A DNA stretch of 28,531 nucleotides from an uncultured archaeon (GTDB lineage Archaea; Nanohalarchaeota; Nanosalinia; Nanosalinales; Nanohalalkaliarchaeaceae). Location of the stretch: positions 2,836-31,366 of the forward strand of contig CAZAFX010000002.1 of assembly GCA_964484895.1 (NCBI GenBank). The letters are read 5' to 3'. The translations under genes were made by a program, and so were the position numbers. The notes under the pieces were generated by a model that saw nothing but the letters and a program-made list of their open reading frames with translations, made no database searches and was not told the DNA's origin. Shown here one piece after another: positions 10,582 through 25,836 of this stretch; the first letter of the stretch is position 1, and every line of letters begins with the position of its first letter.

Positions 10582-10935
10582 TCACTCCGGAAGGCAGAGG
10601 TGTGCGGCTGACTCCGTCCGGGTGTCGAACAGGTCCTGGTCCCTGATGGTGGCGCAGACGTTGCAGAACTCACGGGAGAGGTCGGTGCGGCCGCGGTCGG
10701 CGAGGAGCGTGTCGATGAGTTCCGTGACAGCGCGGTAGGCCGCATCGTCCTCCTTGATGCGGCGGATCTTGGTGCCGCGGGAGGCGTTGAGATACTGGGA
10801 GACGGCAGGCTGGGTGACATCCAGCAGGTCCGCAATCTCCGTCTGGGTGTATCCCTTCTCCTGCAGTTCCTGTGCGATGAGCGACCGGAGGGCCGGCAGG
10901 ATTTCGTTGACCACCGTCTCGCATGCGAGCCGCAT
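10582..10935 (-). CDS. Archaeal HTH transcriptional regulator (COG2522-like, 117 aa)
   Basis: CETVVNEILPALRSLIA, YTQTEIADLLDVTQPAVSQYL..RG HTH, C-terminal CxxC. Confidence 0.85.
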   Translation of the reverse strand: MRLACETVVNEILPALRSLIAQELQEKGYTQTEIADLLDVTQPAVSQYLNASRGTKIRRIKEDDAAYRAVTELIDTLLADRGRTDLSREFCNVCATIRDQDLFDTRTESAAHLCLPE

Positions 10936-10958
10936 ACTGGGTCGTGGGGGCGGCGAGA

Positions 10959-10995
10959 TTTAAAACGCTCGTGCCCAGCGGCGCGTATTTAAAAA
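10959..10995. promoter_or_regulatory. Divergent TATA boxes for the HTH gene (-) and the glmU operon (+)
   Basis: TTTAAAA at 10959-10965 and TATTTAAAAA at 10986-10995. Confidence 0.65.
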
Positions 10996-11015
10996 TCGCG
11001 GCGGAGGGCGGCCGT

Positions 11016-12275
11016 ATGCAAGCCGTCATCCTCGCCGGCGGCCGGTCCTCCCGGTTCTGGCCGCTGAACACGCGGCACAAGTCGCTGGTGCAGGTGGCCG
11101 GCCGCAGCCTGCTCGAGCGGACGCTCGACGGGCTGGCAGCGGCCGGCGTCTCCGATGTCGTCATCGTGCAGGGCGCGGACCGGGCGGTGGCGGACGCAGT
11201 TGACGTTCCGGACGGCGTCTCGGTGTCGTTCGCCGTGCAGGACGAGCCGCACGGGATGGGGCATGCCCTGCGGCAGGCGCAGGACGCGCTGGACGAGCGG
11301 TTCGTGGTCACGAGCCCGTACCGTATCGATATCGCGGTGTTGCTCGCGCAGCTCCGGGATGCGGCGCAGGCGGACGGTGCCGTCGCCGGGACGGTGACGG
11401 ACCGGCCGGAGCGGTACGGGATGCTGGCGCTGGACGGTGACCGGGCGACCGGTATCGTGGAGAAGCCTGACCCGGGTGAGGCGCCGTCGGACGTCAAGGC
11501 GGTGAGCACCTATCTCCTCGACCCGGGGTTCTTCGATGCGCTGGACGCGGTGGAGCAGCATGAGTACAGCTTCGAGGACGCGCTCGACCGGTACATGGAC
11601 GGCGGGCGGGTGGGCGTGGCCAGGATCGACGCCGACCTGCCGTCGCTGAAATACCCGTGGGACCTGTTCACGTTCCGCGACCGCATCCTCACCGGGCAGG
11701 AGCCGCAGGTGGCGGAGAGCGCGGATGTGGCGGATACAGCGGTCCTTGATGGGAACGTGGTCGTGGCGGCGGACGCGACGGTATACGAGCACGCCGTGCT
11801 GCGCGGGCCCTGCTACGTCGGTCCCCGATGCACCGTCGGGAACGGTGCCGTGGTGCGGTCCGGGACGGTCATCGAGGCGGACGGAACGGTGGGAGCGCAC
11901 GCCGAGATCCGCGGCAGCATCATTCAGGACGGGTTCTCGTGTCATAGCGGGTTCATCGGCGACTCCATCATCGGCCGGGACGTGGCGGTCGGGGCCGGGA
12001 CCGTGACCGCGAACCGGCGGGTGCGCGACGGGGACGGCGGCCGGCCGGATATCAGCGTGCGGACGCCTGCGCAGGACGCACCCGTGGAGACAGGGATGGA
12101 CCGGCTTGGCGCGGTGGTCGGTGCCGGGACGGACATCGGGACGCAGGTGAACCTGATGCCCGGCGCATTGATCGGTGCCGGCAGCTTCGTCGGGCCGTCG
12201 ACGATGGTGCGCGGCGTGGTGGATGACGACACGACCGTGTACGCGCGGACGGAGACCGTGGAGCGGGAGCGGTGA
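11016..12275 (+). CDS. glmU: Bifunctional sugar-1-phosphate nucleotidyltransferase/acetyltransferase, archaeal GlmU type (419 aa)
   Basis: ILAGGRSSRFWPL...HKSL, EKP, YPWDL, hexapeptide left-handed beta helix, GAGTVTAN, LGAVVG. Confidence 0.88.
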   Translation: MQAVILAGGRSSRFWPLNTRHKSLVQVAGRSLLERTLDGLAAAGVSDVVIVQGADRAVADAVDVPDGVSVSFAVQDEPHGMGHALRQAQDALDERFVVTSPYRIDIAVLLAQLRDAAQADGAVAGTVTDRPERYGMLALDGDRATGIVEKPDPGEAPSDVKAVSTYLLDPGFFDALDAVEQHEYSFEDALDRYMDGGRVGVARIDADLPSLKYPWDLFTFRDRILTGQEPQVAESADVADTAVLDGNVVVAADATVYEHAVLRGPCYVGPRCTVGNGAVVRSGTVIEADGTVGAHAEIRGSIIQDGFSCHSGFIGDSIIGRDVAVGAGTVTANRRVRDGDGGRPDISVRTPAQDAPVETGMDRLGAVVGAGTDIGTQVNLMPGALIGAGSFVGPSTMVRGVVDDDTTVYARTETVERER

Positions 12276-12982
12276 TCACCATGGTCCGGTGCGTGATCTT
12301 CGACGCCGACCACACGCTCTACACGCCCCGTGCAGAGCGGGCGTACGACGAGCTTTTCGACTTCCTCGTGGCCGAGACCGGCGCCGACCGGGACGACCTC
12401 GAGGCGGCATGGGCGGACGCCGTCGAGGCGGCGAAGAGCAGCGACGCACCCGACGACCGGGCGCGAGACGCGGTGGTGCGGCGAGTGCTGGCAGCGGTCG
12501 ATGTCGACCCCGCTGACGCCCCCGTTGAAGCGGCCGTGGACCGGTTCTGGGACGCTGTCGTGGACGACCTCGCGTACCGCGACGCGGTCCGGGGCGTGGT
12601 GGACCGGCTGCGGGCGGCCGGTATCGCGGTCGTGGCCGTGGCGACCGACGAGTTCCCGGACCCGGTGCGCCGGAAGCTCGCCGTCCTGTTCGACGACCCC
12701 GAGGCGGTGTTCGACGATATCGTGACGCCACGGGATACCGGGACGATGAAGCCCGCGAAAGCGTTCTACCGTGAAGTGCTGGACGCCCACGGGGTGGCGC
12801 CCGGCGAGGCGGTCGTCGTGGGGGACTCGTGGGAGCGGGATCTTGCCCCGGCCGCCGACCTCGGGATGGTGACCGTCCTGCTCCGGCGGGACGGCAGCGA
12901 GCCGGTGGGAGCGCCGGACCACGTGGTGGACGCTGTGGAGGGGGTCGTGCCGCTCGTGGAGGGGATGCAGGATGGACGCTGA
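12272..12982 (+). CDS. HAD-superfamily hydrolase, subfamily IA (236 aa)
   Basis: IFDADHTL motif I, KP motif III, VGDSWERDL motif IV; GTGA overlap with glmU. Confidence 0.88.
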   Translation: MITMVRCVIFDADHTLYTPRAERAYDELFDFLVAETGADRDDLEAAWADAVEAAKSSDAPDDRARDAVVRRVLAAVDVDPADAPVEAAVDRFWDAVVDDLAYRDAVRGVVDRLRAAGIAVVAVATDEFPDPVRRKLAVLFDDPEAVFDDIVTPRDTGTMKPAKAFYREVLDAHGVAPGEAVVVGDSWERDLAPAADLGMVTVLLRRDGSEPVGAPDHVVDAVEGVVPLVEGMQDGR

Positions 12983-14264
12983 CGCCGTCTTCACCCGGTA
13001 CGACATCCGCGGCGACCATCCCGACGAAATCGATGCGGCGTTCGCCGAGCGGCTGGGCCGGGCGGCCGGCCGGTACGCGCAGGACGACGGCCGGGGACAG
13101 GTCGTCGTGGGTCGTGATGCGCGGGCGGCGTCGGAGGCGGTGTACGCCGCGTTCATCGACGGGATCCGGGCGGCGGACACGAACGTCGTCGACGTCGGCA
13201 CCGGGACGACCGACCGCGTCGCGGTGGGTGCCGGGCACTACGGCGGCATCGGGGTGATGGTGACGGCCTCGCATCACGCCTGGGAGCGGACCGGGTTCAA
13301 GTTCCTGTACGAGGAGGGGTACGGATTCTCCAACGACGACCTGGACACGGTGCGGGCACTGTTCCGGGACGACCCGGCTGGCGGCGGTGATGGCAGCGTG
13401 CTGCGGGCGCAACATGAGCACGATGAGCGATACATGGACGCGGTCGAGGCGTTCGCAGCGGACCGTACCGACGGGATCCAGGGCACGGTCCTGCTCGACG
13501 CGGTCGGCGGGGCGGAGCGGACCGCGGCGGCGGTGTTCGAGGCGTGCGGGGCGGATGTCATCGAGATGGAGCGGGACGGGCTGCCGGCGCCGGAGCCATC
13601 CGCGGAGACGCGACAGGATGTGGCGGAGGCGCTGGCAGCGGCGGAGGCGGACGTGGCGGTGGGGTGCGACCCCGACGGCGACCGGGTCTTCCTGGTCCAT
13701 CCCGAGCTGGGCTGGGTCGACGGAGACCGGCTGTTCTATCTGCTCGCGCGTATCACGGCGCCGGAGCGGATTGTGGCGTCGGTCGACACCGCCCCGTTCA
13801 TCGAGGAGACAGGTGCGGCCGTGTCGTACACGCGGGTCGGAGACATCTTCGTGGCCGCCGAGGGGGTGGAGCAGGACGCCGACCTGCTGGGGGAGCCGAA
13901 CGGCCACTACGCGTTCCCGTCCTTCTCGTGGTACAACTCCGGCATCGTCGCCGGTCTGCTGCTGGCGGCGCACCACGACCGTCTCCCGGCGATGCTGGAG
14001 CCTGTGCAGGACTACCGGTCGCACCGGTTCGTGGCCGCGTACGGGTCGATGGCGGAGCGGGACGACGCGATGCAGGACGTGAAGAAGCAGGTGGCGACGG
14101 CCGGGACCGTTGTTGATCGTGTCGACGGCGTGAAGTTCGAGATGGACGGGTGGACAGGGCTGGTGCGTCCATCCGGCACCGCGCCCAAGATCAGGCTTGC
14201 CCTGCACGGCCGGGACCCCGGGGAAGCAGCTGAAGCGGTGCGCGACCGCCTCCTCGGACCGTAG
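12972..14264 (+). CDS. glmM: Alpha-D-phosphohexomutase, probably phosphoglucosamine mutase (430 aa)
   Basis: YDIRG, VTASH phosphoserine, DPDGDR metal loop, GEPNGH, RPSGTAPKIR; operonic with glmU (substrate assignment from context). Confidence 0.8.
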   Translation: MDADAVFTRYDIRGDHPDEIDAAFAERLGRAAGRYAQDDGRGQVVVGRDARAASEAVYAAFIDGIRAADTNVVDVGTGTTDRVAVGAGHYGGIGVMVTASHHAWERTGFKFLYEEGYGFSNDDLDTVRALFRDDPAGGGDGSVLRAQHEHDERYMDAVEAFAADRTDGIQGTVLLDAVGGAERTAAAVFEACGADVIEMERDGLPAPEPSAETRQDVAEALAAAEADVAVGCDPDGDRVFLVHPELGWVDGDRLFYLLARITAPERIVASVDTAPFIEETGAAVSYTRVGDIFVAAEGVEQDADLLGEPNGHYAFPSFSWYNSGIVAGLLLAAHHDRLPAMLEPVQDYRSHRFVAAYGSMAERDDAMQDVKKQVATAGTVVDRVDGVKFEMDGWTGLVRPSGTAPKIRLALHGRDPGEAAEAVRDRLLGP

Positions 14265-14267
14265 GCA

Positions 14268-14621
14268 TCACGCCCATGCCGCCACGCCGTCGATGACGAC
14301 GAACACGGGGCCGAACAGGCACTGGAGGCAGCCGTACTGGAACCGGGAGGCAATACCTGCCGGCGGTGACAGGACGACCATAAACGCCGCGTGCGTTACG
14401 ATGACCGCCACGTAGAGGCCGAGCGCCAGTGGCGACAGGAGCGGCGCCTGGATGAGGAGCGCGTAGCCGGCGGCCGCGGGACTGATCCCGATCGCCACCG
14501 CGAGCAACACCACCGGGATCAGCGGCATCACCATACTGCCGGCGGCGGTCGTGGCGCCGGCCGCGGCCGACAGCCCGACCACGGCACCGCAGTAGAGCGC
14601 GGCGGCGCGGAGCCGGTCCAT
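14268..14621 (-). CDS. Small hydrophobic membrane protein (117 aa)
   Basis: 3-4 hydrophobic segments; stop 3 nt from the convergent glmM stop. Confidence 0.6.
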   Translation of the reverse strand: MDRLRAAALYCGAVVGLSAAAGATTAAGSMVMPLIPVVLLAVAIGISPAAAGYALLIQAPLLSPLALGLYVAVIVTHAAFMVVLSPPAGIASRFQYGCLQCLFGPVFVVIDGVAAWA

Positions 14622-14652
14622 ACCTGTGTATACGTCCGCTCCCTTATAACCG

Positions 14653-15591
14653 CTATTCGAGGATGTCGATGTCATCGACGGTGCCGTCCCCGTCCATATC
14701 CTTGCCGCGGACCACCGCCCCCCACTTCTCCTCACCATCATAGCCGTCGAGTACGGTGTCGTGGTACTGGGTGAGCCCGAGGACAGCAGCGCGCGTCCCG
14801 GCGAGGCGGACACCGGCCAGCACCATCACCGCACGCTCCGGAGCGTCCGGGTGCGGCGTCCGGGCGATGAATCCGACCGTGTCATCCGTATACGTGGTGC
14901 CGGTCACGTCCGAGACGAGGCTGCGGAACGGGAACTCCTCCGTGTCGAACCGGACCGGGAGGTGAGCGTTGACCTCCGCAGTCACCATGTTGGTGAGCGG
15001 TCCACCGAGCAGGACCATGCTGTCCGGGTCGTCGCCCGGCGTGACATCCACGTCCAGCCGGGTCCTCGGTCCCTGGTAGGCGCCGTACTGCCCGAGGAAC
15101 ATGGTCAGGTCGGCGGCGAGGTGGGCGTCCCGCGCCCGCACCTGGTGCGGGCCGTGCGGGTCCGGCGAGCCGACCACGATATCAGCCGCGACCGCGCCGT
15201 TCCGGACGAACGGATGCAGGAACGACCGGAGCGCCTCCGGGGCCGCCGCGACCCCGACATCGGCGAGCTGTTCGCCGCCGTACGGGAGCGCGAGCGCGTA
15301 GCCGTCATCGACTGTCTCGTAGTACTTGGCGACGCCGCCCCCCTGTTCACGCCGCTCCGCGACACGGATGAATCCAGCCTCCTCCAGCTGGCGGACGTGG
15401 TAGTAGACGTTCTGCTCGTGGACATCAAGCTCCGCCGCAAGCTCCGCCGGGTACCGTGGGCGCTCCGCGCAGCGGGTCAGGATCTGCCACCGCGTCTCGT
15501 TGAGGACCGGCTGCAGGTCCGCGGGGTCGTCAGCGAGCCGGACGTTCCGGGCGTACGTGTCGCCATCACGGTCGGAGAGGAGCCGCGCCAT
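14653..15591 (-). CDS. ArsR-like winged-HTH regulator fused to an uncharacterised C-terminal domain (312 aa)
   Basis: TRWQIL...YPAELAAELDVHEQNVYYHVRQLEEAG; C-domain with VLLGGPLTN and terminal DMDGDGTVDD. Confidence 0.8.
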   Translation of the reverse strand: MARLLSDRDGDTYARNVRLADDPADLQPVLNETRWQILTRCAERPRYPAELAAELDVHEQNVYYHVRQLEEAGFIRVAERREQGGGVAKYYETVDDGYALALPYGGEQLADVGVAAAPEALRSFLHPFVRNGAVAADIVVGSPDPHGPHQVRARDAHLAADLTMFLGQYGAYQGPRTRLDVDVTPGDDPDSMVLLGGPLTNMVTAEVNAHLPVRFDTEEFPFRSLVSDVTGTTYTDDTVGFIARTPHPDAPERAVMVLAGVRLAGTRAAVLGLTQYHDTVLDGYDGEEKWGAVVRGKDMDGDGTVDDIDILE

Positions 15592-15636
15592 CGACACCAC
15601 TATGGTCGTGATTATAGCTTATTATTGATGGTGGAC

Positions 15637-15666
15637 AGGAAGAAGAGAAAAAAGGGAAGAAAGAGG
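15637..15666 (-). terminator. Oligo-pyrimidine (U-rich) terminator after the MscS-like gene
   Basis: Minus strand reads CCTCTTTCTTCCCTTTTTTCTCTTCTTCCT immediately after the TAA stop. Confidence 0.7.
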
Positions 15667-15669
15667 CGG

Positions 15670-16302
15670 TTACTCCTCCATGTACTTCTCGGCCTCCTGC
15701 CTGAACACGTCCTTGAGCCCCCATCCTGCCGCGATCGCGAAGGCAAGCCCCACGGATGCGACGATGATGAGGAGGATGTTGTTCAGGAGCTCGGCGCCGA
15801 TACCCGCAAGGGGCAGCGCGGTCGAGACCGCGATGTACAGCACGAAGAAGAAGATCGTCTTCCCCAAGAGGTCCGCGTAGAACGTCTCGGAGCCGACGAT
15901 GTGGTCCTTCGTGTAGATCGCGATGCCGTAGCCGGCCAGGAAGACCGCGATGGCGCCAATCACACCAGGAATCCAGGAGACGATATCCTCGATGAGCGAT
16001 TTGAACGCCGAGACCTCTAGGATGAGTGCCGCCTGCTGCAGGAAGGCGAAGTAGACGATCCACTTGCCCAGCTCCGCGAACAGCTCGCTGAGCTGCAGCT
16101 CAAGGTGACCCTCCTCCTCGAAGTACTCATCGACGCGCGTGTGCTCCAGGAGGCGCAGGATGGCCGAGAACGTGACCCTGCCGAGGATGTAGCCGACGAT
16201 CAACAGGACGACGGCGAAGAACAGCTTCGGCAGGAACTGCTGCGTCGCGTCCCAGATGGGTGCGAACGCGGCAGTCACGGCTGTCTGCACCATGGCTATC
16301 AT
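15670..16302 (-). CDS. CmpX-like membrane protein of the mechanosensitive channel TM-helix family (210 aa; alternative start 16293)
   Basis: QFLPKLFFAVVLLIVG and SWIPGVIGAIAVFLAG TM-helix repeats; AFAIAAGWGLKD ending; lacks the MscS beta domain. Confidence 0.75.
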   Translation of the reverse strand: MIAMVQTAVTAAFAPIWDATQQFLPKLFFAVVLLIVGYILGRVTFSAILRLLEHTRVDEYFEEEGHLELQLSELFAELGKWIVYFAFLQQAALILEVSAFKSLIEDIVSWIPGVIGAIAVFLAGYGIAIYTKDHIVGSETFYADLLGKTIFFFVLYIAVSTALPLAGIGAELLNNILLIIVASVGLAFAIAAGWGLKDVFRQEAEKYMEE

Positions 16303-16346
16303 GTTGAGTTTTGCCGGGCTGTTTAATAAAGGTTTGCGGATATCAC

Positions 16347-16362
16347 TATGAATCTATTCATA
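16347..16362. promoter_or_regulatory. Inverted repeat TATGAAT-CT-ATTCATA, candidate operator
   Basis: Perfect 7-2-7 AT-rich dyad between divergent promoters. Confidence 0.5.
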
Positions 16363-16420
16363 CCGGTTCCGGCGTCGTTTTACACCGGTTTCATATAGGT
16401 TGGGTGCGTGATGGGCGGGT

Positions 16421-18154
16421 ATGTGCGGAATCATCGGGTACAGCGGGGACGCGCAGGCGGCACCACGCATCCTGGACGGGCTGAAGGCGCTGGAGTACCG
16501 GGGATACGACTCCTCCGGGCTGGTCGTGCTGGATGATGACAGCCTGTCCGTGCGGAAGGCTGCTGACGAGCTGGACACGCTCGAGGAGCAGCACGATATC
16601 GTGGCGATGGACGGGCGGGTCGGCATCGGGCACACGCGGTGGGCGACCCACGGCGGCGTGACCGAGGCGAACGCGCATCCGCACACCTGCTGCACCGGCC
16701 GCGTCGCCATCGTCCACAACGGCATCCTGGAGAACTTCGAGGCGATGCGGGACGAGCTCGGCGACCACGATTTCACGTCCGAGACCGACTCCGAGGTCAT
16801 CGCCCATTTCCTCGGCGAGCGGCTTGAACAGGGGGAGGCGCCGGCGGAGGCGATCGCCGCGTTCATGGACCGGGCGGAGGGCACGCTCGCGGTCGTGGCG
16901 CTCGACCGGGAGACGGGGACGCTGTACGGGTTCAAGCGCGGGTCGCCGCTCGCGGTCGGCGTCGCGGATGGGGAGCACTACGTCGCGTCAGATGTGCACG
17001 CGTTCCTCGACCGGACCTCCGACGCGGTGTTCCTGCACGAGGACGAGTGCGTCGTCATCGATGGCGACGACGCCACCTACTTCCACGTGGAGGACGGGCG
17101 CGTGGAGAAGGAGGTGCGGGAGCTCGACGACGACCGCGCCGGGACCGGGAAGCAGGGGTACGACCACCATATGCACAAGGAGATCATGGAGCAGCCGGAC
17201 GCACTGCGGCGGGCGGCGGCGTCGCTCGACAACGCGCAGGCGGAGACGGTCGACCGGTTCGCGGCGCTGCTGGAGGACCACAGCAAGGTCATCTTCACCG
17301 CCGCCGGCACCTCGTACCACGCGTCGCTGCTCGGCGTCTACTTCCTGCAGAAGGCGGGCATCGAGGCGCAGACACTGATCGCGTCCGAGTTCCAACACTA
17401 CGAGCGCGTGGACGACGACACGCTCCTCGTCGCGGTGTCGCAGAGCGGGGAGACCCGGGACACGCTGGACGCCATCGACTACTCCAAGGAACGGGGCGCG
17501 ACGGTCGCATCCATCGTCAACATGCCGCACTCCTCCATCCAGCGGGAGAGCGCGGTGTCGCTGGAAATCCAGGCCGGGCAGGAGACCTGCGTCGCGGCCA
17601 CGAAGACCTATACCAACACCGTCTACACGCTGCTCCGGCTCGCCGCCGCGGCCGGCTACGACGCCGACCTCGACGGCGTGGCCGACAACCTGCAGCGGGT
17701 CATCGACGACAACGAGGAGACCGTGGCAGCGCTCGCCGCAGACCTGGCCGACCAGGACGACATGTACGTCATCGGCCGCGGCGCCACCTACCCCGTGTCG
17801 CGGGAGATCGCACTGAAGCTGAAGGAGATTCCATACGTCCACGCCGAGGGGATGATGGGCGGCGAACTGAAGCACGGCACGCTCGCGCTCATCGAGGACG
17901 GCACACCCGTCTTCGCGCTCGTCCCGGAGGCAGACGACGACATCGTGTCGAACGTCCACGAGATCGAGGCCCGCGGCGGCAACGTCATCCAGATCTCGCC
18001 GTACCACGGCCGGTTCGACCTGCCGGAGGACCGGGATGGCTTCCCGCTGTACGCCACTACCATCGGCTTCCTGCTGGCGTACCATCTCGGCGTCGAGCGG
18101 GGCTGCCCGATCGACAAGCCGCGGAACCTTGCGAAGACCGTCACCGTCCGCTGA
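16421..18154 (+). CDS. glmS: Glutamine--fructose-6-phosphate aminotransferase (577 aa)
   Basis: MCGIIG with catalytic Cys, HTRWATHG, HNGI, ETDSEV, SQSGET, ELKHG, PRNLAKTVTV. Confidence 0.97.
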   Translation: MCGIIGYSGDAQAAPRILDGLKALEYRGYDSSGLVVLDDDSLSVRKAADELDTLEEQHDIVAMDGRVGIGHTRWATHGGVTEANAHPHTCCTGRVAIVHNGILENFEAMRDELGDHDFTSETDSEVIAHFLGERLEQGEAPAEAIAAFMDRAEGTLAVVALDRETGTLYGFKRGSPLAVGVADGEHYVASDVHAFLDRTSDAVFLHEDECVVIDGDDATYFHVEDGRVEKEVRELDDDRAGTGKQGYDHHMHKEIMEQPDALRRAAASLDNAQAETVDRFAALLEDHSKVIFTAAGTSYHASLLGVYFLQKAGIEAQTLIASEFQHYERVDDDTLLVAVSQSGETRDTLDAIDYSKERGATVASIVNMPHSSIQRESAVSLEIQAGQETCVAATKTYTNTVYTLLRLAAAAGYDADLDGVADNLQRVIDDNEETVAALAADLADQDDMYVIGRGATYPVSREIALKLKEIPYVHAEGMMGGELKHGTLALIEDGTPVFALVPEADDDIVSNVHEIEARGGNVIQISPYHGRFDLPEDRDGFPLYATTIGFLLAYHLGVERGCPIDKPRNLAKTVTVR

Positions 18155-21308: not shown

Positions 21309-21977
21309 CTACCGGGTGTATGCCACGAGGAGCGACCCGGTGAAGACGGCGAGCCCGACCTCCGAGGGGACGCGCATCCCGAACTGGGAGAGCGCGATGG
21401 TGAGCACCGCGGCCGCGCCGCCACGGCGGACGTAGCCGAGCGTGAGCTGCTCCGCGTTGAGGTAGGTGGCCGCGTACAGGCCGACCACCGCGACCGCTGC
21501 CGTGACAAGGGCCGGCGCGACGTAGGCGAGGCTGAACCGGAGCGCCTCCGGATTCTTCACCGAGAGCACGAACCCGGTGAGGAGGATGCCTGCCGTGGAG
21601 AGCTTGCCGGACGCCGGCAGGTCCGCGAGCTGGGCGGCGATGACGAGGAGTGCGAGCCCGGCAGCGTACTGGAGCCGGTGGACGTGGAACGCCTGCTCGA
21701 ACGCGGGCGCCACGAGCGCGACCGCCACGGCACCCACCACGAGCACCGGGGCCGCCTGCATCACGATGCGGCGGGCCTCGCGCCGGGTCTCCGCGTGGCT
21801 GTAGAGTACGGCGAGTGCGCCGGCCCCGGTGAAGACCGTGAGGGCAATGGCGACCACGTCGCTGAACGTCTCGATCGCCCCGGTGACGAGGAGCGTGGCG
21901 AACACACCGTCCACCAGCGGGAGGCAAAGGACCACCACAAGCCGTTTGGCGCCGTCGTTATACTCGTCCAGAACCAT
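21309..21977 (-). CDS. DUF5794-like membrane protein (222 aa)
   Basis: LCLPLVDGVFATL N-terminal motif as in haloarchaeal DUF5794; about 7 TM helices. Confidence 0.7.
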   Translation of the reverse strand: MVLDEYNDGAKRLVVVLCLPLVDGVFATLLVTGAIETFSDVVAIALTVFTGAGALAVLYSHAETRREARRIVMQAAPVLVVGAVAVALVAPAFEQAFHVHRLQYAAGLALLVIAAQLADLPASGKLSTAGILLTGFVLSVKNPEALRFSLAYVAPALVTAAVAVVGLYAATYLNAEQLTLGYVRRGGAAAVLTIALSQFGMRVPSEVGLAVFTGSLLVAYTR

Positions 21978-22019
21978 GGAGAGAGAACACCCGCGCAGGA
22001 GGCGGCCGAGAAACGCATG

Positions 22020-22144
22020 GTCCTGGACTTCAACCCCAGAGCGGCTTAATATCCGCCCTGACATCGAAGCCCAGCGGCAGCGTGACGACTGTATGCATCA
22101 GAGAACCGAACCGTTGCATCGTCGCCGAACCGGCGGACGCTGCC
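22020..22144 (-). ncRNA. Unassigned structured RNA or 5' leader (two helical domains)
   Basis: Begins about 25 nt after the CTTATAAA box; GGCAGCG/CGCTGCC closing stem; 12-bp and 8-bp stems with G:U pairs on the minus strand. Confidence 0.55.
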
Positions 22145-22168
22145 ATACCGTAACAGTCCCTGTACAGC

Positions 22169-23349: not shown

Positions 23350-24306
23350 CTACCGGGCGCGGAACACCGGTTCGCCGGCATCGATGACCGTGGTGCCGTC
23401 GAACGTGACCGTCGGCTCCTCGCAGACCGTGTCCCAGTGGACGTCGCAGTCCACGGCATGGTCGTCGCCGTCCGGCACCATCGACGAGCTGTCCCCGAAC
23501 GCGACATGGACCGTGCCCAGCACCTTCTCATCCTGCAGCGTCTGCCCGATCAGCGTCGCCGCCGGGTTCGTCCCGACGCCGAACTCCGCCACGGTCCGCG
23601 CGCCCGCGACCTCGTCGAACGCCGCCGCCAGCTCGGAGCCCGCATCGCCCGGGTGCTCGACGGCGACCGCCTCGTTCCCCTCAATCTCCACGACCGTGCC
23701 CGACGGTGCGTGCGGGAAATGATCGATGACGAGCGTGCCCGATGCAGCGACCGGAGCGCCGAACGCCTCCCCGGCCGGCAGGTTCCCGAACGCCCCGGGG
23801 TCGTGGATGATGCCGGTGTCGGTGTGGAAGTAGCCGGGCCGGACGTCGAACGTGAGATCTGTGCCGGACGGCGTCTCCACGTGCACCTCCGACGTGTCCC
23901 GCAGTAGGTCGTACACCGCCTCCGACAGCCGCTTCACCTCGTCGTAGTCCGCGAGCAGCGACGCCGTCCAGATCTCGCGCGTGATGCCTGGCATCGTCGC
24001 GCCGCGGGCGCCGGCGGCGCAGGCGTCGCGGCGGGAGCGAGTGTGGCTCAGCGACTTCCGCGTGGGAGCGATGAAGACATCGGCCTCGCGCATCGCCTCC
24101 GCCACGGCCTCCGGCGGCTCCATCCCGCTGCGCTCCGGCTCCGGGTAGGTGTGGTAGTCGAACGTGACCGGGCGGTCACCCAGCACGGTGAGGAGAGCGT
24201 CGATGAGATCCTCGTCGTTCCCATCGTTGATCACGGCGATGTGCTCGCCCGCCTGCACGGCGAGGCACTGGTCAATCACGGTCTCGGCACCGGCCTGGAG
24301 CGACAT
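23350..24306 (-). CDS. M29-type aminopeptidase (AmpS/PepT-like, COG2309; 318 aa)
   Basis: GNLPAGE, AEFGVGTN, DEKVLGTVHVAFG and HWD motifs. Confidence 0.88.
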   Translation of the reverse strand: MSLQAGAETVIDQCLAVQAGEHIAVINDGNDEDLIDALLTVLGDRPVTFDYHTYPEPERSGMEPPEAVAEAMREADVFIAPTRKSLSHTRSRRDACAAGARGATMPGITREIWTASLLADYDEVKRLSEAVYDLLRDTSEVHVETPSGTDLTFDVRPGYFHTDTGIIHDPGAFGNLPAGEAFGAPVAASGTLVIDHFPHAPSGTVVEIEGNEAVAVEHPGDAGSELAAAFDEVAGARTVAEFGVGTNPAATLIGQTLQDEKVLGTVHVAFGDSSSMVPDGDDHAVDCDVHWDTVCEEPTVTFDGTTVIDAGEPVFRAR

Positions 24307-24380
24307 GCCTGCCTGTTGCTGGCGACGCCATAAAAACGACACGGTAAGGTTTACATACCGCGGCGGGCAAGGCGTGCCGC

Positions 24381-25448
24381 ATGGGTCACGCCAGCCGCGT
24401 CGACGCGGTGCAGGAGCACCTCCGGGAGAGCGGCATGGACGCCATGGTGGTGACGGGGCCGCAGGACTGCTTCTACCTGTCCGGCTTCCGCGCCACCGGC
24501 GACCACGTCACCTACCCGGTGATGGTGGTGCCGGACGAGGGTGACCCGGTGCTATACGTCTCCGCGCTGGACGATGAGGTCGCGCAGCGCAAGGCTGCTC
24601 TCACGGTGGAGACGCCGGAGAACGGGTTCGCGGCCGCGGTCCGTGACCGACTGCCGGCGGATGCGGACGTGGCGGTGACCGGGCAGATGAGCGTCGGGCT
24701 GTACCACCGGCTGGGAGGCGATATCACACTGCACATCGATGACGGCATCCTCAGCGAGATGCGGGCGGTGAAGGAGCCGGACGAGGTCGCGGCCATCGCG
24801 GATGCGTACGACATCGTCGAGAACGCGGTCGGCGCCGCCGTCACCGCGGACACGGCGGGGGACACGGAGCGGGCGGTGGCGGCCGAGATCGAGTACGAGA
24901 TGCGGGTGCGTGGCGGGGATGAGACCGCCTTCCCTACCATCGTCGGGACCGGGGCGTTCACGGCGCTCCCGCACCACGTCGCGACCGACACCACCATCGA
25001 GGACGGGCCGCTGCTCGTGGACGCGGGCGTCCGGGCGAACGGCTACCGCAGCGACTTTTCCCGGGTCTTCCACGTCGGGGAGCCGACGGACGCGTTCCTG
25101 GATGTGTACCGGGCGGTGCAGCGGGCACAGGAGGCGGCTGCCGACCGGCTGGCGGCCGGGGTGGCGTACAGCGATGTGGCACATGCTGCCCGGGCGGTCA
25201 TCGAGGAGGCGGGGTACGGTGACAGCTTCCCGCACTCCGCGGGCCACGGCGTCGGCATCGATATCCACGAGGCCCCGAACCTGTCCACGGCGGCCGACGG
25301 CACGCTCCAGGCCGGGATGGTGGTCACGGTGGAGCCGGGCATCTACCTGCGCGGCGAGTACGGCGTCCGCATCGAGGACGCCTACCACGTCACAGAGGAC
25401 GGCGCCGAGCGGCTCACGGCGTCGAACCGCGACCTCACCATCCTCTGA
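24381..25448 (+). CDS. M24B Xaa-Pro aminopeptidase/prolidase (355 aa)
   Basis: Creatinase N-domain; DAG...SDFSR, HGVGIDIHE, TVEPGIY and RIED metal ligands. Confidence 0.92.
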   Translation: MGHASRVDAVQEHLRESGMDAMVVTGPQDCFYLSGFRATGDHVTYPVMVVPDEGDPVLYVSALDDEVAQRKAALTVETPENGFAAAVRDRLPADADVAVTGQMSVGLYHRLGGDITLHIDDGILSEMRAVKEPDEVAAIADAYDIVENAVGAAVTADTAGDTERAVAAEIEYEMRVRGGDETAFPTIVGTGAFTALPHHVATDTTIEDGPLLVDAGVRANGYRSDFSRVFHVGEPTDAFLDVYRAVQRAQEAAADRLAAGVAYSDVAHAARAVIEEAGYGDSFPHSAGHGVGIDIHEAPNLSTAADGTLQAGMVVTVEPGIYLRGEYGVRIEDAYHVTEDGAERLTASNRDLTIL

Positions 25449-25612: not shown

Positions 25613-25625
25613 AGCACGGACACAT

Positions 25626-25776
25626 GCGGGGGTAGCCAAGTGGCCAAAGGCGCAGGGCTTAGGTCCCGGACACCGGAACGCGAGTGACGGTGTGCGGCGA
25701 GGAAAATCCGCCAGGATTTTCGTTGGGAGATACCCTGTCCCGAAGGGGTTCGCAGGTTCAAATCCTGTCCCCCGCA
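25626..25776 (+). tRNA. tRNA-Leu(TAG) with 68-nt intron (25664-25731) at position 37/38
   Basis: First 30 nt identical to tRNA-Leu(GAG); CAGGG/CCCTG anticodon stem, spliced loop CT-TAG-GA; the spliced length of 83 nt equals that of the other tRNA-Leu. Confidence 0.92.
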
Positions 25777-25836
25777 TCACGTCGCTCCGGGAAGTGCTGC
25801 TGCGGCCCGCATCCCAGCGGCGGTGCAGGCGGGGGC

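Follow-up and report, generated by a model that had tools for sequence, protein, structure and literature searches.

Upstream of the gene for a DUF5794 membrane protein in a nanohaloarchaeon lies a stretch of DNA which looks like the template of a regulatory RNA, and the question raised by this locus is what kind of regulator it encodes and which signal it reads. The window, which is the whole 28,531 nucleotide stretch analysed, is part of contig C2 of a genome of 1.19 Mb, available as an assembly which is 87% complete. A preliminary description made from the sequence had proposed a noncoding element of about 125 nucleotides ending at position 22020, with a promoter of its own, to be understood either as a riboswitch-like leader of a transporter-like protein or as an independent small RNA. 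Much of its anatomy proved to be correct. The TATA box was verified at its position across the end of the upstream gene, and GGCAGCG (22144–22138), its partner CGCTGCC (22082–22076) and the stem of the second domain are all located where they had been placed. The inner helices of the first domain are present at their positions as well; ATGCA/TGCAT is not part of the minimum-energy fold and is supported by a compensatory change in the relative L161, and the hairpin CGCCG/CGGCG is found in this genome only. The region from 22150 to 22000 folds with −71 kcal/mol (z −3.72), which was equalled by one of 200 shuffles. Also in agreement with the preliminary description, no Rfam model matched the leader in the window region (best E 1.3) or in 20 related loci, including the models for yybP-ykoY, fluoride, C/D and H/ACA RNAs.

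What had to be revised was the noncoding character of the element and its downstream boundary. The predicted 5′ end of the RNA coincides with an AUG at 22146, the G of which is the first G of the element as originally delimited, and from this AUG a reading frame of 38 codons extends through most of the folded region. The functional unit runs beyond 22020 to the start of the DUF5794 gene (21966). The element is a conserved, structured, promoter-driven cis-leader of this gene without an Rfam family. The leader half of the original reading is thereby retained, while its riboswitch and small RNA halves are not supported; what 55 diverged homologs have conserved is an AUG at the start set by the promoter, the open frame, the frame-specific codon motifs and the helices pairing with the start codon of the gene. 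The element occurs as a single copy in the genome, directly 5′ of DUF5794, a location which it always has and which is also found in relatives of the same family; a mobile hairpin element was discarded as an explanation on these grounds. The features are collected in Table 1.

Table 1. Features of the DUF5794 leader and gene (positions in the window).
Feature	Position	Strand	Basis or remark
Archaeal TATA box CTTATAAA	22169..22176	minus	Overlaps the last codon (Leu) and stop of the upstream coiled-coil gene
Leaderless upstream reading frame (leader peptide), 38 codons plus UGA	22030..22146	minus	Frame kept in homologous regions
Helix P1 (first domain of the preliminary description), from G of the leader AUG, codons 1–24	22076..22144	minus	Fold and RNAalifold
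Hairpin P2 (second domain of the preliminary description), last 14 codons plus stop	22023..22074	minus	Two-sided changes
Single leader Trp codon, position −2	22036..22038	minus	One-Trp rule in homologs
Anti-start segment, 13 nt (5′ strand of P3)	22016..22028	minus	Complementary to the DUF5794 start region, just 3′ of the leader stop
Spacer hairpin P4, with SD-like GGGUG (21992–21988) at its end, then pyrimidine tract (21987–21978)	21978..22004	minus	
DUF5794 start region (3′ strand of P3)	21966..21978	minus	Codons 2 and 3 nearly invariant in nucleotide sequence
DUF5794 membrane protein gene, 222 amino acids, regulated gene	21309..21977	minus	Pfam PF19107, E 3e-14

Among 73 distinct nanohaloarchaeal regions upstream of DUF5794, 67 carry a leader of 29–44 codons by rule, and as the open frame belonged to the selection rule, weight is placed on this frequency and on controls. 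One further leader was recognised by eye and five regions have none; all five of these DUF5794 copies depart from the start motif, and four are second copies in their genomes. The control set consisted of 55 leaders less than 80% identical to each other, in which the length varies over the same 29–44 codons while the frame stays conserved. The two other frames of the same span are open in just five and three of the 55, compared to about seven expected from shuffles, and a codon pair of Lys or Asn followed by Phe or Ile occurs 109 times in the leader frame and seven and five times in frames 1 and 2. An independent gene caller predicts the leader as a gene in L161 and L243. In the homologs an AT-rich box is found about 25–37 nt (mostly 29–33) 5′ of the leader AUG, which is the distance expected for a leaderless start from a TATA box, and the frame stops shortly 5′ of a conserved word. 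A translational attenuator with a leader peptide is expected to begin with such a short reading frame, in which the frame itself is conserved.

The composition of the frame is peculiar. The last 16 codons of the 55 leaders consist of 18% Phe, 15% Lys, 10% Asn, and 10% Thr, and Tyr is found once in 880 tract codons; the bias is weaker in the family to which the window belongs than in the larger family. Another finding was that exactly one Trp is encoded in 51 of 55 leaders (variance 0.08 of expected). This codon is mobile, ranging from position −1 to −33: when the terminal Trp is absent there is usually another one upstream, yielding 35 leaders with a terminal Trp only, 16 with an upstream Trp only and none with both (p 1.6e-10, although p-values overstate here since the homologs are kin). 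Some 11 separate relocations were counted on a DUF5794 tree, which came from a quick, unfinished search with one row of uncertain start omitted. Three further relatives follow the one-Trp rule too, in one of which UGG has become CGG at position −2 and a new Trp has appeared at codon 14.

In 144 tract codons 4 synonymous and 20 nonsynonymous changes were counted, as compared to 266 synonymous and 69 nonsynonymous changes in 765 codons of DUF5794 in the same pairs. The excess of nonsynonymous changes in the tract means that the leader peptide is not under purifying selection of the protein type. With synonymous change suppressed and no protein-like conservation of the peptide, selection acts on the codons and the RNA, which favours a sensor of decoding over an arrest peptide or a microprotein. 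Three modes of sensing tRNA maturation were discarded: t6A37, as AGY and AGR codons are not enriched; U34 modification, as neither GAA nor CAA shows enrichment and AAG and ACC are preferred in nanohaloarchaea; and tRNA splicing, as intron-bearing tRNAs include those for Lys, Asn, Thr, Trp, and Met but also those for Tyr and Ile(UAU), the codons of which are avoided.

The helices are arranged around this frame in a manner which suggests a switch. P1 is more stable than codon shuffles (z < −2) in 23 of 55 homologs. P2 is formed by strands 22074–22063 and 22034–22023 with an inner stem around ATATTAAG at 22052–22045; two-sided change occurs in 5 of 11 pairs, which bears out the second hairpin of the preliminary description, and the duplex with its own partner has a median of −15.0 kcal/mol versus −8.8 with permuted partners. 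Its outer 3′ strand shares 6 nt with the anti-start segment, so that P2 and the start-hiding helix P3 compete. For P3 the median is −15.9 kcal/mol versus −7.6 when shuffled, significant in 48 of 55 homologs. Among the 55 homologs, 45 have GUU as codon 2 of DUF5794 and 49 have CUG as codon 3, compared to about 30% of the Val and 25% of the Leu codons in the gene body. The preliminary description had suggested looking for covariation in regions upstream of DUF5794, and compensatory changes were found in P2 as well as in P3, in the latter at start positions 4–10 (e.g., L072, L078, L131, L150, and L066), where U positions take A or G partners in turn and a changed gene start often comes with a changed partner. 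All three helices were recovered unguided by RNAalifold in seven close relatives. A start-hiding helix with covariation and, in computed folds, a competing helix overlapping the reading frame are further hallmarks of a leader attenuator. Pyrimidine tracts precede the DUF5794 start in most homologs, and GGGUG may serve as a Shine-Dalgarno sequence. A reading of the ATATTAAG loop as TATA box for an AUG at 22017 was rejected, as this AUG lies within the anti-start segment and does not share the frame of DUF5794.

The effect of a ribosome on these helices was modelled by equilibrium calculations with the footprint of 27 nt taken from Haloferax volcanii (PMC7261190), an organism in which translation can be regulated by masking the Shine-Dalgarno sequence and AUG (PMC8241225). 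Opening the start was calculated to cost about 6 kcal/mol both in naked RNA and with a ribosome at the stop, as compared to 11–12 kcal/mol when the ribosome occupies the final ten codons. The modelled median occupancy of P3 is 0.54 in naked RNA, 1.00 with a ribosome on the late tract, and 0.48 at the stop, and 0.81, 1.00, and 0.16, respectively, in this window; start pairing above 0.5 is predicted in 30, 52, and 23 of 55 leaders in the same three states. In about six of the 55 the anti-start segment begins at least 10 nt past the stop, and a terminating ribosome would miss it. The gap from leader stop to DUF5794 start is 27–91 nt in nanohaloarchaea, and as re-initiation coupling is limited to about 30 nt (PMC12548453), the mostly longer gaps fit a need for an RNA switch.

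Sequence comparison establishes the promoter, the AUG where the transcript is expected to begin, the conserved open frame, the three helices and the overlap of P2 with the anti-start segment. Together they make it likely that the leader is a ribosome-coupled translational attenuator of the upstream reading frame type for DUF5794, a view in which translation of the leader and its regulatory effect are deduced from comparison and modelled folds. In naked RNA, P2 and P3 would be nearly balanced. P2 would be removed and P3 locked, with the start hidden, by a ribosome which occupies the last ten or so codons, and P3 would be loosened by a ribosome at the stop, which would cover the anti-start segment at its 5′ end. 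DUF5794 would then be translated only if ribosomes reach the leader stop, slow decoding would keep the start hidden, and the untranslated RNA might be shortened by polarity of the FttA type. The signal would be the supply of several charged tRNAs, sensed via the obligatory Trp codon and the Phe/Lys/Asn/Thr tract, and DUF5794 would be on when these amino acids are plentiful, as might be expected if the protein is linked to growth or exports amino acids in surplus. Provided that the leader is an attenuator, sensing at the level of codons or tRNAs is rather probable, and stalling as the off state is favoured by a somewhat smaller degree. Predicted stalled folds differ between leaders with early and late Trp, and a single direction of the response therefore needs an argument from flux or coupling.

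Further light on the signal comes from Halobacteria, where DUF5794 was found in all 121 genomes searched. The gene is located between guaB and DUF5795, and next comes a long tRNA gene which, by its length, is probably that of the intron-containing tRNA-Trp. The family is present in Haloferax volcanii, where the gene is probably HVO_1274, judging from the order TrmB-guaB-DUF5794 and from HVO_1272 being TrmB. A leaderless frame of about 54–85 codons precedes DUF5794 in 70 of 72 halobacterial loci examined, and in two loci this frame corresponds to Pfam DUF8099 (PF26401), which Pfam classes as a protein of unknown function. These leaders resemble the nanohaloarchaeal ones in position, leaderless start, a 5′ helix beginning at the AUG and a central tract in which Phe, Thr, Lys, Asn, and Trp are abundant and Tyr is lacking. 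They differ in their length and in their stop, which in 69 of 70 falls in the range from 6 nt before the start of DUF5794 to 4 nt inside it, and an anti-start switch was rejected for them as the position of the ribosome left start accessibility unchanged in the calculations. Their tract is written in locally rare codons (ACA makes up 124 of 212 Thr codons as compared to 4 of 610 in the gene). The amino acid bias is common to both groups while the favoured codons differ, ACA and AAA in Halobacteria and ACC and AAG in nanohaloarchaea. Starvation-sensing leaders likewise use the same amino acids in differing, lineage-specific codons, a pattern which both groups resemble. No Trp is found in 19 of 70 halobacterial leaders. 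Halobacteria would appear to reach the same coupling through a leader stop placed at the DUF5794 start. A tentative generalisation, somewhat less likely to be right than wrong, is a multi-input amino acid sufficiency gate in nearly all extreme halophiles examined, where one leader would test several charged tRNAs together, by the movable single Trp and the Phe/Lys/Asn/Thr tract in its lineage-specific codons, and all of these must pass before a core membrane gene is translated, by stop-start coupling in Halobacteria and by an anti-start switch in their DPANN symbionts.

Some observations on individual loci may be added. In 56 of 70 halobacterial loci (L172–L241) the leader stop and the DUF5794 start share a reading frame (gap of 0, 3, or 6 nt), which could reflect in-frame re-initiation or read-through. 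A word CACACAA or CACGCAA is located directly 5′ of the leader TATA box in most halobacterial loci (e.g., L163:3700–3760), in a promoter region shared with the divergent guaB, and is possibly a BRE or a regulator site. At L170:3788–3988 a distant DUF5794 homolog (28% identical) is preceded by a leaderless frame of 66 codons, containing Phe, Lys, Asn, Thr, and one Trp, which ends 12 nt 5′ of the gene start. No leader is present at L169, L219, and L229.

The alternative which survives best, itself unlikely, keeps leader and helices and replaces the trigger by arrest through the nascent peptide or by a physical effect on decoding (K+, Mg2+, a polyamine, an antibiotic, or a transported solute), as in MgtL/MgtQ, TnaC, and eukaryotic arrest upstream frames, with DUF5794 as a halophile-specific ion or solute transporter. 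A C-terminal pattern of aromatic-x-Trp-Lys/Asn/Arg-stop is indeed common, the tract has a basic and aromatic character with few Asp, Glu, Tyr, and His, opposite to the halophile proteome, and it prefers weak A/U-rich codons; DUF5794 itself was found by the searches run in salt-in archaea only and carries an invariant Asp-Gly inside a broken first helix. However, arrest peptides require fixed residues at fixed distances under purifying selection, which is not what the wandering Trp and the unsuppressed nonsynonymous change in the tract present, and the peptides of the two groups have no common profile: a profile of 70 halobacterial leaders scores nanohaloarchaeal ones at a median of 1.5 bits, as compared to 0.5 bits for shuffles.

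Still less probable is a functional microprotein, e.g., a partner of DUF5794, with helices that set a fixed stoichiometry without sensing anything. The halobacterial version being a Pfam family would fit such a product, and a single Trp with alternating aromatic residues could suit a membrane-binding peptide. Yet the peptide lacks purifying selection and has 29–44 codons in one group and 54–85 in the other, and suppressed synonymous change together with the rare codon skew points to decoding and not to a product.

A riboswitch with P1 and P2 as the binding site of a metabolite or ion, P3 as the expression platform and an incidental open frame has a very low probability. It would account for the strong fold, the real covariation, the alternative start-hiding helix and the strong conservation at the nucleotide level, and some short words in the element resemble yybP-ykoY. 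This likeness is one of short words only, and readings as yybP-ykoY, tRNA, 5S, SRP, or C/D guide RNA were all discarded for lack of a model match. Against an aptamer speak the missing Rfam match in window and related loci and the inner architecture of the first domain, which varies freely. No pocket of invariant unpaired nucleotides was found in the 55 homologs; loop and junction bases vary, and even in close relatives the invariant columns belong to strands that pair, to codons, or to the start region. An aptamer also leaves the AUG at the transcript start, the frame-specific motifs and the one-Trp rule unexplained. An independent small RNA which merely happens to be 5′ of DUF5794 would have a promoter and compact fold of its own and a weak terminator-like hairpin (22004–21988; one candidate found, 0.4 expected by chance), and is the least probable of all, as there is covariation in cis between the element and the region of the DUF5794 start codon, and the element is a single copy always directly 5′ of this gene.

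The attenuator proposed here has well-known counterparts. In trpL, pheL/pheM, thrL, ilvL, ermC, and cat-86 a short reading frame enriched in certain codons, with nonrandom synonymous choice, is located within mutually exclusive helices, as is the case for the DUF5794 leader. The latter differs in having an archaeal TATA promoter, a leaderless start and no clear intrinsic terminator; archaeal transcription termination requires no hairpin. In addition, the gene which it precedes encodes neither a cognate synthesis enzyme nor a synthetase or resistance protein, and the sensing codons overlap the protector helix and are not upstream of it. Coupling to an upstream reading frame is also known from uof-fur of Escherichia coli, a comparable system unrelated in sequence. 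Salmonella mgtQ-mgtB (PMC8092293) works alike as such a switch, again with unrelated sequence, and requires acidic residues, which are avoided in the DUF5794 leader tract. A similar layout is found in the mycobacterial polycysteine attenuators (Ms5788A; 10.1101/834739), where a leaderless short frame comes first, a duplex hides the downstream initiation site and the ribosome on the short frame is the sensor. That system is bacterial and senses one amino acid in a run, and stalling blocks the sequestering helix and turns the genes on, whereas the DUF5794 leader has a tract of several amino acids, one mobile Trp, a helix hiding the AUG and codons 2–4, and a modelled stall which turns the gene off. 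The fluoride riboswitch is named in one paper as the only natural archaeal riboswitch shown experimentally (PMC8241225), and a literature search, which was incomplete, yielded no description of an archaeal leader peptide attenuator and no mention of DUF5794, DUF8099, or HVO_1274. The leader thus provides an anatomy backed by covariation for ribosome-mediated control in a DPANN symbiont, with similar leaders in nearly all salt-loving archaea examined; DUF8099 can be recast as a probable regulatory leader, and as Haloferax volcanii has the family, the idea is testable with existing genetics and Ribo-seq data.

The leader is also the first clue to the signal of DUF5794. The predicted structure of this protein is all-helical and of membrane type (pLDDT 94). 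Searches with Pfam, NCBIfam, PDB sequences, two AlphaFold models, Foldseek, VIA-align, and Atlas returned no family other than DUF5794, apart from helical bundles of a generic kind, and the designation as transporter-like in the preliminary description found no backing there. A kinship to VIT1, which the protein may resemble, or to LysE-type proteins would be compatible with these searches, and an exporter or growth-linked protein would fit the proposed direction of regulation. Genes for M29 and M24 peptidases often adjoin DUF5794 in nanohaloarchaea (23350–25448 in the window; L160, L161, L243, and L244), a neighbourhood which may reflect a link to peptide or amino acid supply or, alternatively, plain synteny.

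Several further observations concern tRNA genes. An intron-containing tRNA-Leu(UAG) gene at 25625–25778 of the plus strand was missed by the default tRNA scan and found with an intron search; it lies just 5′ of a minus-strand frame of 357 amino acids (25625–24552) without Pfam match, possibly a shadow frame of the M24 peptidase gene, which is located on the opposite strand. Just outside the window, at C2:572–692, a tRNA-Ile with UAU anticodon and a canonical intron is predicted, and AUA is the commonest Ile codon in the DUF5794 genes of relatives, unlike in Halobacteria. Introns at or near position 37/38 are found in the tRNAs of this genome for Lys (two), Asn, Thr (two to three), Trp, Tyr, elongator Met, Arg (three), and Leu UAG, and no convincing tRNA-Phe gene was detected in the 87% complete assembly. 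Two contigs titled Colwellia polaris (L126 and L128) contain nanohaloarchaeal DUF5794 loci and are probably mislabelled or mis-binned records. Elsewhere in the window, a cluster at 10923–18154 of the plus strand encodes a GlmU-like nucleotidyltransferase/hexapeptide protein, a GlmM-like phosphomutase, and a GlmS-like glutamine amidotransferase-SIS protein, i.e., amino-sugar synthesis.
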